Shown one piece after another: positions 1,766-14,597 of a DNA stretch of 64,000 nt. The stretch spans positions 32,001-96,000 of the IMG/VR virus record IMGVR_UViG_3300042445_001170. One strand, given 5' to 3'. Numbering within the stretch: the stretch's first letter is position 1; each line of letters opens with the position of its first letter. The translations under genes were made by a program, and so were the position numbers. This stretch comes from a virus. Under the pieces are notes generated by a model. It was not told the origin of the DNA and searched no databases. It worked only from the letters and a program-made list of their open reading frames with translations.

Positions 1766-1950
1766 CCTAACTCCTTCTCAATAGCCTGAATAACTTCTTT
1801 AACAGGAACACAGCAATGACCTTTTTTGTCTAAAAAATTACACAATTCCACTACTGCACGAAGGGCTCGCATAGATTGTGGGTCACCGTTGTAATAAGCA
1901 ACATCTAATCTGCGGTTAATTTCAATTAGCAATTCATCGTATGTCATCAT
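1762..1950 (-). CDS. hypothetical protein (start moved to ATG 1950)
   Basis: ATGA coupling with upstream gene. Confidence 0.65.
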   Translation of the reverse strand: MMTYDELLIEINRRLDVAYYNGDPQSMRALRAVVELCNFLDKKGHCCVPVKEVIQAIEKELG

Positions 1951-2162
1951 TGCTCCATCATAGCATTTATACCCTTGATTACACAAGTGTCTATGCCATC
2001 TCCATATCTATGGGTAAACTTTTTACCTACCCTCCATAGCTGATCGTCTTCTATGATTAAATAGTCATTGATTGAATCAGGATCTGTATCTCCTGCAACC
2101 CGCCCAATGTGGTATGTCTTAATTAGCCTATCGTTAACGTATATTGGAATGTGTATTGGCAT
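1947..2162 (-). CDS. hypothetical protein (start moved to ATG 2162, after tRNA-Gln)
   Basis: Longer ORF-track start lies inside tRNA-Gln. Confidence 0.65.
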   Translation of the reverse strand: MPIHIPIYVNDRLIKTYHIGRVAGDTDPDSINDYLIIEDDQLWRVGKKFTHRYGDGIDTCVIKGINAMMEQ

Positions 2163-2163
2163 G

Positions 2164-2234
2164 CTCTCCCCCAAGGATTCGAACCTCAATAGCCAGGACC
2201 AAAACCTGGAGTCCTACCGTTAGACGAGAGGAGA
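2164..2234 (-). tRNA. tRNA-Gln(UUG)
   Basis: Cloverleaf, CCAGG-TTTTGGT-CCTGG, GGTTCGAATCC, U1-A72. Confidence 0.92.
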
Positions 2235-2239
2235 CTATG

Positions 2240-2322
2240 CGGAAACAATAGGATTCGAACCTATGGATCTTTCAATCTACGATTTAGCAAACCGTTGCAT
2301 TCGACCACTCTGCCATATTTCC
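2240..2322 (-). tRNA. tRNA-Ser(GCU)
   Basis: Cloverleaf with long variable arm, loop TTGCTAA. Confidence 0.92.
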
Positions 2323-2483
2323 TTGTGTCGGGTCAGTTTATAGATTCCACACTGTAAGGCCTTTAACCGAGTCCCCCGACGAGACCGTACAGTAGACTCC
2401 TAGTTGCCCCTGTAGTTTGCGTAAACAGAAAGCTAACTTTTCGTAGCTACCGAAAGTTCCTACTGCCATACAAACGTTTCCCG
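2323..2483 (-). ncRNA. putative structured ncRNA C between tRNA-Trp and tRNA-Ser
   Basis: No ORF; multistem junction (GCAGUAGG/UCUACUGU) plus long 3' hairpin. Confidence 0.55.
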
Positions 2484-2554
2484 CACCGTCTCTAGGAGTC
2501 GAACCTAGGCTTGCCGCTTTGGAGACGGCAGTGCTACCATAACACTTAGACGAT
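2484..2554 (-). tRNA. tRNA-Trp(CCA)
   Basis: GCCGT-CTCCAAA-GCGGC, GGTTCGACTCC. Confidence 0.92.
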
Positions 2555-2685
2555 ATGTGATCAATAGGTCTACGAGCAGACTAACCTAATGATCGTGATA
2601 TATGAGGATTTACTATCGCTCGTTGTCCTCCAGTTGTCCCCGTCGGGAGTCAGTCTCAATTACCTGAAACTCAACTTTAATATCG
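2555..2685 (-). ncRNA. putative structured ncRNA B with 6-bp kissing loop, between tRNA-Leu and tRNA-Trp
   Basis: No ORF; nested stems; loop ACGAGC complementary to loop GCUCGU. Confidence 0.62.
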
Positions 2686-2759
2686 TACATCAGGTAGGAG
2701 TTGAACCTACAACAATTAGTTCCTAAGACTAACGCCTCTACCAGTTGGGCTACTGACGC
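2686..2759 (-). tRNA. tRNA-Leu(UAG), short variable loop
   Basis: TTAGT-CTTAGGA-ACTAA; 74 nt. Confidence 0.88.
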
Positions 2760-2929
2760 AAATGCTAGCCACGACTTGGGTTCTTAACCTAAACCATCTG
2801 CTAGCTGTTATACCTAGTTACGACCACAGAGCCTATCCATCAGCCTGAACGCCTTCATAAGATGCAGGTAACAGTGCTAAGTTCGGTATAACTATCTCCG
2901 TACAGGTTGTTCAGACCTTATACTTTGAG
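2760..2929 (-). ncRNA. putative pseudoknotted ncRNA A between tRNA-Met and tRNA-Leu
   Basis: No ORF; 9-bp GGUCUGAAC/GUUCAGGCU enclosing loops complementary to downstream GGUAUAACAG; 3' hairpin. Confidence 0.6.
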
Positions 2930-3004
2930 TGGCGGATATGGGATTTGAACCCATGACCTAAAGCTTATGAGGCTTTCGAGCTAACCGAACTGCTCTAATC
3001 CGCT
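2930..3004 (-). tRNA. tRNA-Met(CAU), initiator-like
   Basis: A1xC72 mismatch, A11:U24, T loop TTCAAAT; anticodon stem AAAGC/GCTTT. Confidence 0.88.
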
Positions 3005-3014
3005 GTGGAGATTA

Positions 3015-3043
3015 AGTATAGTACAGAACTAAATCCCTGTCAA
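3015..3043 (-). promoter_or_regulatory. SigA-type promoter of the tRNA/ncRNA array
   Basis: TTGACA-17-TATACT. Confidence 0.8.
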
Positions 3044-3340
3044 CTATATTTGAATTGCCATTACACTCTTGGCATTAAGTAATAGATACTTAGTGTTGTC
3101 ATCATCTTCAACTTCCGTCCCAGAATGCTCTGGATAAAGGATTACATCTCCCACATTGATTCCGCCAATCGGGATCAGGTCGCCCTTGTAGTTGTATTCA
3201 CCTTCGCCCATGCTAATTACTGTAGCTTTATTTGGGCCTTGATCTGAGAACGTGGCAGATAGCACTAAGCCTGTAGCCGTTGTCTTTTCGCCTGTTTCAA
3301 TCTTCTTGATAAGCAACATTCCACCTATAGGTTTAATCAT
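3044..3340 (-). CDS. groES: co-chaperonin GroES
   Basis: IKP.G...T.TG.VL...G.V...G.G...GD.I.Y...GTEV...YLLL. Confidence 0.9.
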   Translation of the reverse strand: MIKPIGGMLLIKKIETGEKTTATGLVLSATFSDQGPNKATVISMGEGEYNYKGDLIPIGGINVGDVILYPEHSGTEVEDDDNTKYLLLNAKSVMAIQI

Positions 3341-3553
3341 TGTCTATGCCTTTTCTTATTTCCATAACGAGCCTTGACTTCTGCCTTAGCTTTATCTACA
3401 ATAGATTGCGTTAAAACATCTACATTAAATTCATCATCAAACTGCTGTTCGTTCATCTGGATCCTTTTCCCATGTAAGTTTTCCATCTTTATATACAGGC
3501 CAATATCCTAATGAACGCCAGTCCATTTTCATAATCTTTGGCTCTCTTGGCAT
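3337..3553 (-). CDS. two coupled microproteins (3437-3553, 38 aa; 3337-3456, 39 aa)
   Basis: Hand translation MPREPKIMKMDWRSLGYW... and MNEQQFDDEF...; second overlaps groES ATG. Confidence 0.55.
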
Positions 3554-4488: not shown

Positions 4489-5100
4489 TCATAGGAATTC
4501 ACCAGTAAAATTAACATTTGCGCTTAATCTAAATTGAGATGTATGGGGGTAGCTCCAACTATGAAACCTATCTGAGTAGAAAATGGCGCATGCTCCAGCT
4601 TTAGGGTGTATCTCTTTAATTATACTAAGATCTTCTACCGTTGTCTTTTTGCCATCGTACATCTTGTTGTAAAGGGTTGTAGGGCCTTCTGAGTCATTGA
4701 TATAGTACATGAAAGAGAACCCTCCGAACCTTCCATTAAGGTCTGTATGGATGGGAAGAGTCCTTTGATCGCTATTTTTTACTGTTAGGTTGACTCTTAC
4801 TCTTAAAAATTTATCAACACGAATCTTATACTTATCTGCAAAGGCATTCAATATCTCTGATAAGATAGGGGTAGATAGACTTGGCATTCCTAGAATTGAC
4901 TTATCTCCAAGAAGTATCAATCCATCCTGTGTTTGATCGGTATCTATACCAGATAGTCCATCAGTTTCTGCCCCAACAGTTTCCTGCATATAGTAGGGCA
5001 TATTCATAAATATTTTTTTATATTTCTCTATTTGTTCTTTGCTAAATATGTCTTCATCATAGATATACCCTGGGTCTACCAAAAGGTGTTCGTTGCTCAT
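4489..5100 (-). CDS. 2OG-Fe(II) oxygenase superfamily protein
   Basis: HTD...YYIN..EG.T...H...R.S.N; leaderless (TAGGAT-6-ATG). Confidence 0.75.
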   Translation of the reverse strand: MSNEHLLVDPGYIYDEDIFSKEQIEKYKKIFMNMPYYMQETVGAETDGLSGIDTDQTQDGLILLGDKSILGMPSLSTPILSEILNAFADKYKIRVDKFLRVRVNLTVKNSDQRTLPIHTDLNGRFGGFSFMYYINDSEGPTTLYNKMYDGKKTTVEDLSIIKEIHPKAGACAIFYSDRFHSWSYPHTSQFRLSANVNFTGEFL

Positions 5101-5137
5101 GTATATATCCTACTATTTCTATTAGTTTATTGCAATA

Positions 5138-5275
5138 CTAGCTGACGTAAAAGTTTCTCATATGAGTCTTACATACGGAAATTATTGTTGCCCCTAGCTG
5201 ATCCCAGTAAATACCTGGCTCACTACAAAAATGACATTTGTCATCGTATGGCTTATTAACATCAGTCGTGTTCAT
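5138..5275 (-). CDS. small Cys/His zinc-binding protein (start ATG 5275)
   Basis: KCHFC...VCKTH. Confidence 0.55.
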   Translation of the reverse strand: MNTTDVNKPYDDKCHFCSEPGIYWDQLGATIISVCKTHMRNFYVS

Positions 5276-5483
5276 ATCTATCTTTAATTCTCCTCCACCT
5301 TCCCCATTGGGTAGGTACATCGAGTCCAATATACTCCTGGCCAGTTTCTAAGTCAATAAGAAGCCATTTCCCAGGAGCTTTTGTATGAATTGTTAAGTTA
5401 ACAGCCTCTTCAAATTCGTGAACTTCTGCTCCTTGATACATTTTAGGTAAAAAGGTATAGACATTGTTAAGTAATTTTCTCAT
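5262..5483 (-). CDS. hypothetical protein
   Basis: ORF track; TATAAT upstream. Confidence 0.7.
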   Translation of the reverse strand: MRKLLNNVYTFLPKMYQGAEVHEFEEAVNLTIHTKAPGKWLLIDLETGQEYIGLDVPTQWGRWRRIKDRYEHD

Positions 5484-5504
5484 ACAGATACTATTATATC
5501 TTAT

Positions 5505-5648
5505 TTAAACTGCTAATTCCCTTGGTAACATTATTTCGCATTTGTCACAGTAATCATAAATAGATCCAGTGTACGGACATTGCCCAGCTTCAATTAAATT
5601 ATGCCCATTAAAATAACATTTAATTCTGTTAAAGTAATGACTAATCAT
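5505..5648 (-). CDS. small Cys/His protein (DUF1660-like; start ATG 5648)
   Basis: KC.F.GH......C.......C..C. Confidence 0.55.
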   Translation of the reverse strand: MISHYFNRIKCYFNGHNLIEAGQCPYTGSIYDYCDKCEIMLPRELAV

Positions 5649-5772
5649 CTTGCTTTTCTTTATCCCAAGGCGGAGGTTCAACTGGAGGTCTGCCGTGTGA
5701 CCCATCGCATACTGGATAGGACAAAGACCTACCGCATTGACACATTACTACTGCTGGATATTTGGTAGCCAT
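5641..5772 (-). CDS. CDGSH iron-sulfur domain microprotein (43 aa)
   Basis: MATKYPAVVMCQCGRSLSYPVCDGSHG is an exact CDGSH motif; ATG overlaps ahpD TAA. Confidence 0.88.
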   Translation of the reverse strand: MATKYPAVVMCQCGRSLSYPVCDGSHGRPPVEPPPWDKEKQDD

Positions 5773-6284
5773 TATGCTGAAAGTATCTTTGATAAAGCGT
5801 TAATTGTTGCAGATATTCTACCGATATCTCTTAACTGCTCCACTGTGTACCCCTCTTCTTTTAATGTCTCATAATGTGCTTTTACACAAAAATGACACTT
5901 TCCTATAATAGATGAGGCTAGCGAGTAGGCTTCAAACTTTGCCTTTGTAGTTCCGCCATGAGTTGCAATAGCATTCATTCTTAGCTGTGCTGGCAATCCT
6001 TTAAGATTTGCATCGTCTGCCATTTCTATAAATGGATACCAAACATTATTTTGTGCCATGATTGCGCCAGCAGTAAGGGCTGCATTTTTTTCAACTTCGT
6101 CCGTTGCATTTGCAACAATAAAAGTTAGCAACTTAGAATTGCCAGTAGAAAAAGCAGCAGCTATTGAAAGATACAATGCATGTTCTGGATCAATAGTTGA
6201 TCTGTTTATCACAGCATCAAGATTTAATCTAATATCTTTTGCATACTCTGGAAGATTTTCGTTTAGCTGTCCTACCCAAGACAT
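5772..6284 (-). CDS. ahpD: alkyl hydroperoxide reductase AhpD
   Basis: LPEYAKDIRLNL, MAQNN, CHFCVKAH (CxxC). Confidence 0.93.
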   Translation of the reverse strand: MSWVGQLNENLPEYAKDIRLNLDAVINRSTIDPEHALYLSIAAAFSTGNSKLLTFIVANATDEVEKNAALTAGAIMAQNNVWYPFIEMADDANLKGLPAQLRMNAIATHGGTTKAKFEAYSLASSIIGKCHFCVKAHYETLKEEGYTVEQLRDIGRISATINALSKILSA

Positions 6285-6820
6285 TATAGCGTTTCTCCGC
6301 CAAGAGGTCTATTGCATGCACAAAGCTCACCAGTTTGGAGGGCATCTAGAACACGCAATGCTTCTCCTGCATTACGACCTACATCTAAGTTGTTGCATGT
6401 TACATGCTGAATAATGTTATCTGGATCTATAATAAATGTTGCACGGTATGTGACGCCAGATGAGTGATGTACTCCTAGATCGTTTGCTAAAGCGTGTGAT
6501 GTGTCTGCAAAAGACCATGAGTTAGTTTTCTTAAGATCTTCATGGGCATTTCTCCATGCAATTTTGCAGAACTCATTGTCCACTGATCCAGTCATAAGCA
6601 CTGCATCTCTGTCATTAAAGTCATTTACTAATGCATCGTAGGCAACAATTTCTGTTGGGCAAACAAATGTAAAATCTTTTGGATAGAAAGCAATGATCTT
6701 CCATTTTCCTGGGAATGAGTCTTGTGTCAACACTTCAAATGAGCTATCTTCATAAGATAAAGCCCCTGGCTTAACTCCAGTTACTGCGAAGTTGCCTAAT
6801 TTCTCTCCTACTGTTTTCAT
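6284..6820 (-). CDS. ahpC: peroxiredoxin AhpC
   Basis: FYPKDFTFVCPTE, VGRN, GELCACN. Confidence 0.95.
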   Translation of the reverse strand: MKTVGEKLGNFAVTGVKPGALSYEDSSFEVLTQDSFPGKWKIIAFYPKDFTFVCPTEIVAYDALVNDFNDRDAVLMTGSVDNEFCKIAWRNAHEDLKKTNSWSFADTSHALANDLGVHHSSGVTYRATFIIDPDNIIQHVTCNNLDVGRNAGEALRVLDALQTGELCACNRPLGGETL

Positions 6821-6906
6821 ATTACTACCGAATCTAATACAATGTCTACAGCATCATCCAATGATGTAGTGTGTTCTTTGGAACAATTACCGCATTCTTT
6901 ACACAC
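6817..6906 (-). CDS. 29-aa Cys peptide MCKECGNCSKEH...
   Basis: GTG start; TGA overlaps ahpC ATG. Confidence 0.55.
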   Translation of the reverse strand: MCKECGNCSKEHTTSLDDAVDIVLDSVVI

Positions 6907-6908
6907 GG

Positions 6909-7115
6909 TTAAACTTTCTTTCTGCCGCTTTTCTTTGGAGGTCTAGGTACTAAGCTAGTCTCTCTTCGTATCCCATGTTTATTTGTATCAATCTTAACAC
7001 CTTGTCTTGGATACCTTTTAGGTGTACTTGTGCTTGTGACAGCACCAGCTGGTGCACCAGCATTTGCTGGTGGCACCATGCCAGTACCATCTTCTTTTTT
7101 TAAACTATCTGACAC
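6909..7115 (-). CDS. 68-aa low-complexity basic peptide
   Basis: ORF track; GTG overlaps upstream TAG. Confidence 0.65.
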   Translation of the reverse strand: MSDSLKKEDGTGMVPPANAGAPAGAVTSTSTPKRYPRQGVKIDTNKHGIRRETSLVPRPPKKSGRKKV

Positions 7116-7246
7116 TAATCTATGTCCTGTCCATTTGCGCCTTTTGGCTCTGACATTTCGTGTGTCGATGATTCTTCTATTTCCACAGACATCATTCCTG
7201 ACGCTGATCCAATAGAGTTAGACTGACAACCGCATTCAATACACAT
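7115..7246 (-). CDS. 43-aa peptide with N-terminal MCIECGC
   Basis: TAATG coupling upstream, TAGTG coupling downstream. Confidence 0.6.
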   Translation of the reverse strand: MCIECGCQSNSIGSASGMMSVEIEESSTHEMSEPKGANGQDID

Positions 7247-7425
7247 TAGTTGCAGTTCTCACAATCTTTTATTGCACATTCGGCATCGCCTCTTGTGTCT
7301 CTAGTGCATTCTGCTCCAGACTTAGCTGGGGCTGCAACTGGTGCAACTGCAGGTGTTGCTACTACTGCGGCTACTGCTGCTTCTACTGATGCAGCAACAA
7401 CTTCTTCTTTATCAAATAGACCCAT
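7246..7425 (-). CDS. 59-aa Ala/Val-rich peptide with C-terminal 4-Cys cluster
   Basis: MGLFDKEEV...ECTRDTRGDAECAIKDCENCN. Confidence 0.6.
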   Translation of the reverse strand: MGLFDKEEVVAASVEAAVAAVVATPAVAPVAAPAKSGAECTRDTRGDAECAIKDCENCN

Positions 7426-7427
7426 TT

Positions 7428-7577
7428 TTACTTTGGGCCCTGTGCTGATGCTTGGTTAGAAACATCTGTTGCTGGAAATGCGGCTGCTGGCGCCTCTGTG
7501 TAGTTCTCTGTTGCCCATGGTGATGATCCTGCTGGCTTTGTTTCATTAAATCCTTTTAAATCTTTTCCGTCTGACAT
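7428..7577 (-). CDS. 49-aa low-complexity peptide
   Basis: AGGAG SD; upstream TGcTATAAT promoter near 7634-7642 and 5' hairpin. Confidence 0.65.
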   Translation of the reverse strand: MSDGKDLKGFNETKPAGSSPWATENYTEAPAAAFPATDVSNQASAQGPK

Positions 7578-7658
7578 GTTGTGCTCCTATAGGTTATTTA
7601 TTTAAACGGGACTAGTATTCCGCTTATGGATCTATTATAGCATTTGGTTGATTAAAAC

Positions 7659-8477
7659 CTACTCGTTGCTATTTTCCCAGCCATACCATGGCTTTACTCC
7701 ACTATCAGATTTATTGTCCAAGACTATGCCCTTTGAGACAGATTCCTCTAGCATTTCTTTTGTTATTTCCACTTCTGTTTCATACATTGGCCTTACTCTA
7801 GGCCTCATCTTGTCCCGCTCATGATAAAGGAATGAAATCATATTAATTCTTTCGCCAGACTCAACTTTTTTTACTCCATGTGGTAGGCTGTAGTCGCCTT
7901 CAAAAAAGACTAAGGTTCCTGTTTTTGGCTTATATTCAAAATCTTGGAATGGGAAAAACAGCTCCCCACCAGTATACTCTTCATTTAAATATAAAAGTGC
8001 CGCTCTATCTTCGTATTCATGCTCTCTTATTTTAAGCCCGCCTTCTGAATCAACATAGTGGTTGTCCATGTGAAGCTTATTTTCTGCTCCTGGCTTCATG
8101 TGACTATAAAACATGCTTTTTGCAACAAATGGAGTTCCATAGAAATCTGAAACCGCTTTAACCATTGAAACCGATATCAATTGAAATAGATCTAGGCTTA
8201 AATCATATGCTGGGTCACCAGTATATTTAGAAACATATTCGTATGGGGTAACGGCATTTCCAGACAATCCGCCAGATATATATTGATTATGCGGTGTCAC
8301 TGTAAGGTATTGATTTTGTATTGCTGTTAGCATTTTTGCTGTATGTGGTGATATAAAGTTTTCAACAACATGTATTTTATCAAAATAAGTTTTTACTTCT
8401 TTAAAGTAATATCTATCTGGGTCCTCAAGAAAAGGTCTATCTTGATCTAACATATTTATTCCTCTATCTGTGCCCAT
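7659..8477 (-). CDS. prolyl-4-hydroxylase-like 2OG-Fe(II) oxygenase
   Basis: HMD...LYLN.EYTGGEL.F...HGV..V.SG.R. Confidence 0.85.
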   Translation of the reverse strand: MGTDRGINMLDQDRPFLEDPDRYYFKEVKTYFDKIHVVENFISPHTAKMLTAIQNQYLTVTPHNQYISGGLSGNAVTPYEYVSKYTGDPAYDLSLDLFQLISVSMVKAVSDFYGTPFVAKSMFYSHMKPGAENKLHMDNHYVDSEGGLKIREHEYEDRAALLYLNEEYTGGELFFPFQDFEYKPKTGTLVFFEGDYSLPHGVKKVESGERINMISFLYHERDKMRPRVRPMYETEVEITKEMLEESVSKGIVLDNKSDSGVKPWYGWENSNE

Positions 8478-14296: not shown

Positions 14297-14597
14297 GCTT
14301 TTCCTTTATTCTTTTCCATACTTCTTTTGTCTTATGTGCATTTCTAACTTTGTCATGAGACCCAGAATTTAAATAAACTCCACCCCATACTCCATAATCA
14401 CTATTTGATACCCCGCTGTCATAGCATAACTTAATGACTGGGCACGATAGGCATGCCTCGTCTATGCTTTTTGCTATATTGACATCTGCTTCATACTTAT
14501 CAAAAAAAAGATTAGTGTCCATTCCCAAGCAAAGGGCTAGCTTGTACCAATCTAAATTATCTTCATCTACATTTAAACTATTTAAAATATTTGACAT
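14286..14597 (-). CDS. whiB: WhiB-family Fe-S transcription factor (start ATG 14597)
   Basis: W...A.C......FF...C..CPV...C......GVWGG. Confidence 0.92.
   Translation of the reverse strand: MSNILNSLNVDEDNLDWYKLALCLGMDTNLFFDKYEADVNIAKSIDEACLSCPVIKLCYDSGVSNSDYGVWGGVYLNSGSHDKVRNAHKTKEVWKRIKEKHVY

Follow-up and report, generated by a model that had tools for sequence, protein, structure and literature searches.

The tRNA array and its long spacers

The stretch of DNA analysed here is a window of 64,000 nucleotides (nt) from virus record IMGVR_UViG_3300042445_001170 (positions 32,001-96,000), and the coordinates given below are those of the window unless a related locus is named. The parent record has 112,167 base pairs (bp) and is rated complete. 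On the minus strand of the window, five transfer RNA (tRNA) genes form an array with three long spacers, which are termed S1, S2 and S3. Comparison with related phages indicates that these spacers are genes for three conserved families of structured RNA, which behave as modules of phage arrays in the same manner as tRNA genes.

In the direction of the minus strand, the array consists of a promoter-like site (3015..3043), tRNA-Met(cat) (2929..3004), S1 (2760..2928, 169 nt), tRNA-Leu(tag) (2685..2759), S2 (2555..2684, 130 nt), tRNA-Trp(cca) (2483..2554), S3 (2323..2482, 160 nt), tRNA-Ser(gct) (2239..2322) and tRNA-Gln(ttg) (2163..2234). ARAGORN and Rfam concur on all five tRNAs, and homologues of S1, S2 and S3 are compared in alignments A8, A5 and A7, respectively. 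An earlier note on this DNA had described five tRNAs and three spacers of 170, 131 and 161 nt. This arrangement is borne out, with exactly these lengths if the tRNA ends predicted by Rfam are used and with lengths of 169, 130 and 160 nt by the ARAGORN ends. The tight packing that had been noted for the other tRNA pairs of the window is also found, with gaps of 0-4 nt between neighbouring tRNAs (ARAGORN). CCA is not encoded in the array tRNAs, for example tRNA-Trp. Each of S1, S2 and S3 is present once in this genome, and the three fall into separate clusters, in agreement with the earlier observation that the spacers differ in sequence.

The promoter-like site is of the sigma-70 type (-35, 17-nt spacer, -10) and matches TTGACA-17-TATACT, the promoter that had been proposed to drive the array, at 11 of 12 positions. 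No other such site occurs within 1800-3400, and this one is not conserved in a relative (locus L004). Its -35 hexamer lies directly after the stop codon of the upstream gene (3044-3340, minus strand), which is GroES-like as judged by eye from its translation only. Terminator-like sites are absent from 1800-3400, and the hairpins of the array are devoid of a U-tract. At the other end of the array, the next small open reading frame (ORF) has its ATG (2150) immediately beside the 3' end of tRNA-Gln, again with no terminator between the two. The lack of terminators, together with the abutting GroES-like gene and small ORF, suggests that the tRNA/RNA cassette is located inside a longer operon.

Three spacer families in related phages

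A comparison set of 58 related loci was assembled from IMG/VR and metagenome contigs, and the spacer families were recovered from it by blastn and nhmmer. Relative L004, which was reached through the GroES-like gene (75% protein identity), contains an array of the order Gly, 151 nt, Leu(tag), 128 nt, Trp, 140 nt, Gln, in which the three spacers align with S1-S3. An 18-mer from the core of S2 matches 30 viral contigs, in each case inside a tRNA array and with differing neighbours. Extra loci came from further motifs and one metagenome scan. A loose S1 pattern yielded mostly chance matches, the real ones being only L167 and L192, and 4 of the 43 matches to a 17-mer from the P4 loop of S2 (see below) were chance matches in coding DNA.

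Clustering of all inter-tRNA spacers resulted in three main families plus several small ones. A profile census of the 58 loci gave 20 distinct copies of S1, 48 of S2 and 31 of S3. The designation of the spacers as "orphan" RNAs was therefore not quite right, since each has a family of its own, with 20-48 distinct copies. Conservation of the spacers had been set beforehand as a test on which the idea could fail; they are conserved in many related phages.

The modules are found next to many different tRNAs. All 20 distinct copies of S1 sit between two tRNAs, with 7 kinds of tRNA upstream and 5 downstream; the corresponding numbers are 9 and 12 for S2, and 5 and 9 for S3. S3 directly follows tRNA-Trp in 24 of its 31 copies, and is also found after tRNA-Asn, -Asp, -Glu and -Leu. 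In nearly all cases a module has a tRNA on either side and flush borders: S modules begin 0-5 nt past the upstream tRNA and finish 0-3 nt before the next one. The lengths of the array gaps show a bimodal distribution, with 127 gaps of 0-12 nt, 104 gaps of 111-200 nt and 13 gaps of 13-110 nt. The order of the modules varies, arrays gain and lose modules, S modules also occur singly, and related phages carry their arrays at different genome positions.

An exact scan of 185,579 prokaryotic genomes with the S2 18-mer returned 5 matches, all of them due to chance and with no shared flanks. Among cultured phages, blastn of the region matched tRNAs alone, and S1-S3 were not found at the sensitivity of this program.

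The earlier statement that the spacers lack ORFs holds in the sense that no conserved reading frame is present in the S1, S2 and S3 homologues, but not literally, as S3 contains an ORF of 43 amino acids (2338-2469, minus strand). The frame of this ORF is not kept among the copies of S3, many of which have no start codon. The longest ORFs of S1 and S2 have a median length of 28 amino acids and occur on either strand.

Evidence for conserved folds

Extensive folding of the spacers had been proposed by eye. It is not shown by one sequence: folding-energy z-scores for the single sequences are -0.13 for S1, -2.53 for S2 and -0.59 for S3, so that S2 alone stands out. It is, however, shown by comparison of homologues. 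Each family has a fold supported by covariation, compensatory changes are abundant in all three spacers, and controls in which the pairing partners were slid gave 0-7 compensatory pairs. Each alignment contains 70-105 G-U cells, which would be C-A mismatches if read on the opposite strand, and thus the folds belong to the strand that bears the tRNAs. As the homologues were gathered by means of conserved motifs and are themselves relatives, the shuffle controls overstate the significance; more weight should be given to the controls with slid partners and to the large number of independent pair types.

Each S RNA also has a long-range contact, which is a loop-loop pairing in S1 and S2 (a candidate in the case of S2) and an H-type pseudoknot in S3. 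The earlier picture of a multi-stem 5' part with tertiary complementarity, followed by a 3' hairpin, applies broadly to S1 and S2. In S3, by contrast, the supposed 3' hairpin is the outer helix of the pseudoknot.

In S1, a hairpin with a loop of 7 nt at the 5' end is followed by a central domain of several stems, which a long-range helix closes, and by a 3' hairpin (2764-2805). In alignment A8 (17 sequences) 99.3% of the cells are paired, and 23 of 45 pairs show compensatory changes, compared with 10.9±1.9 in shuffled and 0-6 in slid controls. The loop-loop contact joins 2909..2913 with 2846-2850 on the minus strand (positions 16-20 with 79-83 of the RNA). Its 5 pairs are paired in 100% of the cases, and there is one double change, from C-G to U-A, in L043 and L069. 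The 7-nt loop resembles the anticodon loop of tRNA-Phe; a role as an anticodon-loop decoy was considered and rejected, as the loop is occupied by the loop-loop contact.

In S2, helix P1 (2680-2684 with 2597-2601) has 5 bp and begins at nucleotide 1 of the RNA. The junction closed by P1 comprises P3 as well as P2, the latter with two inner hairpins; a 3' hairpin of 12 bp, P4 (2559-2594), comes next. Alignment A5 (31 sequences) has 99.0% of its cells paired, with compensatory changes at 20 of 40 pairs versus 6.2±1.6 after shuffling and 3-7 after sliding. Three members have the inner part of P2 swapped for a single hairpin and keep P1, P3 and P4. A hexamer in the P3 loop (2618..2623, minus strand; RNA positions 62-67) is complementary to a hexamer in the P4 loop (2572-2577; RNA positions 108-113), and all 6 pairs can form in 100% of the 31 sequences. 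Five of them never vary, the sixth is A-U in 17 sequences and G-U in 14, and no double change occurs. It is plausible that the P3 and P4 loops form a kissing loop, which might be intramolecular or intermolecular.

Four copies of S2 are 190-191 nt long and contain an extra hairpin module of 62 nt between P4 and the next tRNA (L040:1746-1806, L047:532-592, L057:1967-2026 and L062:3527-3587).

S3 begins with a 5' helix (2471-2475 with 2415-2419) that encloses a variable hairpin; next come a hairpin (2388-2414) and, on the 3' side, a domain with a pseudoknot (2327-2386). In alignment A7 (23 sequences) 95.5% of the cells are paired, and compensatory changes affect 11 of 34 pairs, against 1-3 in slid controls. 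The 3' domain is an H-type pseudoknot. Its 5' strand (2375..2380, RNA positions 103-108) lies in the loop of a 4-bp hairpin (2370-2386) and pairs with 2327-2332 (RNA positions 151-156) at the 3' end of S3 (minus strand; 100% paired). When all copies are considered, this 6-bp helix exists in six sequence versions, from GUCGGG/CCCGAC to GAGAAC/GUUCUC, each of which is fully complementary (one uses G-U), and the enclosing 4-bp hairpin exists in eight versions, each with 4 of 4 pairs.

The loop of the central hairpin of S3 (window 2399-2406, RNA positions 78-85) always contains a short palindrome, which is CUAG, CUGCAG or CUAGCUAG depending on the subgroup. Through this loop, two copies of the RNA could form a kissing contact. 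By eye, S2 (2632-2653) and S3 (2327-2337 and 2397-2410) have two short motifs in common, in swapped order. These common motifs may be due to chance, to a shared binding site, or to descent with rearrangement.

Searches for known RNAs and protein partners

A search of the region against Rfam 15 returned only tRNAs, both at the gathering score and at E≤10, so that no known family matches the spacers; at the gathering score, tRNAs alone were likewise found in 10 related loci. None of the ribozyme families of Rfam, that of the hepatitis delta virus (HDV) ribozyme included, matched the region at E≤10. Neither ARAGORN nor the Rfam tRNA model (E≤10) detected tRNA-like parts in S1-S3. The S RNAs do not resemble the 16S, 23S or 5S ribosomal RNA of E. 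coli (E 0.2-0.6 at best). Literature searches found no description of the S1-S3 RNAs. Small RNAs embedded in phage tRNA clusters are of a known kind; the three families found here are absent from Rfam 15.

Genes that recur next to the arrays encode 2OG-Fe(II) oxygenases, CHAP lysin, Hsp20, an SNase-like nuclease, CMD and AhpC, and include no obvious RNA partner. The phage genome has no gene for TROVE/Ro60, RtcB, a CCA-adding enzyme or a reverse transcriptase.

Probable release from a common transcript

S1, S2 and S3 are probably stable small RNAs that are co-transcribed with the tRNAs and released by tRNA-processing enzymes, as are the species 1 and 2 RNAs of phage T4. RNase P and cleavage at tRNA 3' ends are established parts of tRNA processing. 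The whole array would form one transcript, which would start from the promoter at 3043 and/or result from read-through from the GroES-like gene. Host RNase P would cut at the 5' end of each downstream tRNA and so generate the 3' end of the S RNA preceding it, and trimming of the CCA-less tRNAs (by RNase Z, or by RNase E plus exonucleases) would generate the 5' ends. The freed RNAs of 130-170 nt might then be protected by their terminal helices, namely P1 at the first nucleotide of S2, and the 3' hairpins or pseudoknot near the last nucleotides. The flush borders, the lack of terminators and further promoters, and the helices at both extremities all fit the release of discrete RNAs. Overall, the earlier interpretation is supported, with release by tRNA-processing enzymes and the stability of the transcripts as the parts that we infer.

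A number of observations weigh against this scheme. S2 follows a protein gene, without an upstream tRNA, in L036, L043 and L215; it closes the array, with no tRNA behind it, in L033 and L044; and S3 abuts S2 directly in L070. Since these S modules lack a flanking tRNA, tRNA processing cannot set every end. Moreover, S1 and S3, when folded as single sequences, are no more stable than shuffled ones; the homologues were collected by conserved motifs, which accounts for part of the invariance of these motifs; and a search of the genome and of the genes beside the arrays yielded no partner protein.

The conserved loops of the S RNAs are engaged in internal contacts, which makes small RNAs that act by base-pairing less likely than RNAs that self-assemble or that serve as globular binders or decoys. 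Speculatively, the S RNAs might bind or decoy a host protein or RNA involved in translation or RNA processing, or they might self-assemble as particles. In a more far-reaching reading, which is unlikely, the long gaps would be a reservoir of functional RNA classes not yet described, and one or more of S1-S3 would be a new self-cleaving or trans-acting ribozyme, or would form protein-free dimers, rings or cages, with the tRNAs serving as release signals. For assembly of this type, contacts from one molecule to another would be supplied by the P3 and P4 loops of S2 or by the palindrome in the S3 loop.

The tRNA arrays of one group of lake phages, likely with actinobacterial hosts, thus appear to carry interchangeable RNA genes of 120-170 nt with at least three unrelated folds. 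For annotation, this means that stretches such as S1-S3 would otherwise be taken for empty spacers. The three RNAs are short targets with testable tertiary contacts, and are suited to structure work, RNase P/RNase Z processing assays and partner pull-downs. We suggest that the gaps of phage tRNA arrays are a productive place to seek new RNA classes.

Alternative explanations

Theta-type ribozymes, which sit at phage tRNA 3' ends, provide the main rival to release by tRNA-processing enzymes. According to this alternative, at least one S RNA would be a self-cleaving ribozyme of a new class that cuts at its own 5' end and thereby matures the 3' end of the upstream CCA-less tRNA, as theta ribozymes do. 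Theta ribozymes are minimal HDV-like ribozymes that were found in gut phages beside CCA-less tRNAs (Kienbeck et al. 2024, PMC10879173). They cleave no more than 5 nt from the 3' end of a phage tRNA, and CCA is missing from 95% of the tRNAs concerned (PMC10879173). The S RNAs resemble them in being pseudoknotted RNAs of non-tRNA type that are restricted to uncultured tailed phages and located directly (0-5 nt) at the 3' ends of CCA-less tRNAs, and all three have pseudoknot-type contacts and highly conserved cores. They differ in fold, in size (130-170 nt, which is 2-3 times that of theta ribozymes) and in origin, that is from lake phages likely of actinobacteria as opposed to gut phages of Bacteroidota. 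The ribozyme families of Rfam gave no match even at E≤10, and the helices supported by covariation do not form the nested double pseudoknot of HDV (P1, P1.1, P2, P3 and P4, with the catalytic C in J4/2). In particular, S2 has no 3' strand for P2, and S3 has no P3/L3 between two 5' strands, its pseudoknot being located 96 nt from the tRNA end. Furthermore, 127 tRNA pairs that are 0-12 nt apart in the same arrays mature without such an element, S2 is also found without an upstream tRNA, and its central domain is replaced in some members. We therefore consider tRNA maturation by an S ribozyme to be quite unlikely.

Instead of being products themselves, the spacers could also act in cis on the output of the downstream tRNA, as the sensor of a riboswitch or attenuator, as an antitermination RNA, or as an insulator of folding or processing. 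With an aptamer-like domain on the 5' side and a hairpin on the 3' side, just before a gene, the modules do resemble a riboswitch, and they are located inside one transcription unit. However, an expression platform is missing: the hairpins have no U-tract and there is no terminator-like site, so that the spacers show neither the terminator hairpin nor the competing antiterminator of a terminating riboswitch or attenuator. The invariant P4 loop of S2 is complementary to the P3 loop and not to an antiterminator strand. The downstream tRNA varies (12 kinds for S2) or is absent, as S2 can end an array, and three different folds would be odd for one task. Action in cis is quite improbable on these grounds.

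A further explanation holds that the modules are selfish or neutral passengers, that is small elements which move between tRNA arrays by recombining at conserved tRNA ends and whose RNAs play no part in infection. This might account for the occurrence of the same module between different tRNAs and in different orders, for the gain and loss of modules, and for the different genome positions of the arrays among related phages. The compensatory changes, many of which proceed via G-U intermediates on the transcribed strand only, show instead that the RNA fold is under selection. The modules have no linked transposase, endonuclease or reverse transcriptase, and since tRNA genes are shuffled in the same way, shuffling alone is no sign of a selfish element. 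Passengers of this sort are very unlikely. Finally, a reading of the spacers as genes for small proteins or as decayed tRNA genes, to which the 43-amino-acid ORF of S3 and spacer lengths near those of two tRNAs might lend colour, is hardly credible, as the small-protein version was rejected on the unkept frames and the short ORFs of S1 and S2, and the tRNA model has no match in the spacers at E≤10.

Comparison with known systems

The closest precedent for S1-S3 is provided by the species 1 and 2 RNAs of T4 (rnaC and rnaD), which have been known for decades and are cut from a tRNA precursor by host tRNA-processing enzymes. In the T4 locus, rnaD (119 nt) follows tRNA-Arg at a distance of 1 nt, and rnaC (139 nt) comes 6 nt further on. 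Like S1-S3, they belong to a tRNA cluster, have the same orientation as the tRNAs, lie within a few nt of a tRNA, and do not form a terminator-bounded unit of their own. The T4 RNAs are expressed, and their function is still unknown (PMC9697503). Unlike S1-S3, they are located at the 3' end of the cluster rather than between tRNAs. There is no sequence similarity between the two sets, as nhmmer profiles of S1-S3 gave no match to the T4 locus at E≤10, and S1-S3 are shuffled as modules among many phages. The predicted fold of rnaC ends in a hairpin that resembles a T-arm, whereas S1-S3 have no tRNA-like part. When compared with shuffled sequences, the predicted fold of rnaC (L204:1909-2047) is of much greater stability (z-score of -4.57), and that of rnaD is ordinary (z-score of -0.83).

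GOLLD and ROOL are, like S1-S3, encoded by phages or prophages, often near tRNA islands, and are without a known function; GOLLD can contain tRNAs. Both assemble via RNA-RNA contacts (PMC12286853). They are much larger (>500-800 nt), and the Rfam models of both had no match here or in 10 related loci. A GOLLD-like identity, which had been among the earlier suggestions, is thus not supported: the spacers have no Rfam match, measure 130-170 nt and are modules independent of each other.

In E. coli, the 3' external transcribed spacer of leuZ, which is a sponge of small RNAs, is likewise a functional RNA that arises from the processing of a tRNA operon. Spacer RNAs of the leuZ type are short, largely unstructured and Hfq-dependent, and act by base-pairing; S1-S3, by contrast, are globular, with their conserved loops paired internally. 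Release signalled by tRNAs is also found outside bacteria. In murine gammaherpesvirus 68, tRNA-like units are followed by precursor microRNA hairpins and are cut by tRNase Z, and in the tRNA punctuation model of mitochondria, tRNA structures are the processing signals that free neighbouring RNAs. These cases are similar in the mode of release, but they are eukaryotic or organellar, and the products freed are microRNA precursors or messenger RNAs. The Rfam model of the packaging RNA of the phi29 type had no match in the region. In that RNA, molecules are linked into a ring by two loops that complement each other; S2 has two mutually complementary 6-nt loops, which may pair either within one molecule or between molecules.

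Other features of the window and of related arrays

A gene of the WhiB family (14376-14549, minus strand; 42 bits, above the Pfam cut-off) is located beside a Leu/Asn tRNA pair of the window. This gene is consistent with a host that is likely to be actinobacterial. Stress and redox genes, including several 2OG-Fe(II) oxygenases, AhpC and CMD, are found in window 4489-8477 and in the flanks of the arrays in relatives, where Hsp20 and the SNase-like nuclease also flank arrays.

Apart from S1-S3, the related arrays contain about nine small spacer families of 75-335 nt that are unlike these three and make up 22 of the 115 distinct long gaps. Examples are L069:1037-1158, L039:4774-4907, L041:560-736, L048:3719-3859 and L088:922-1046. 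These additional families may be further RNA classes. One spacer family, consisting of gaps of 281-283 nt, contains a gene for a small DUF7455 protein.

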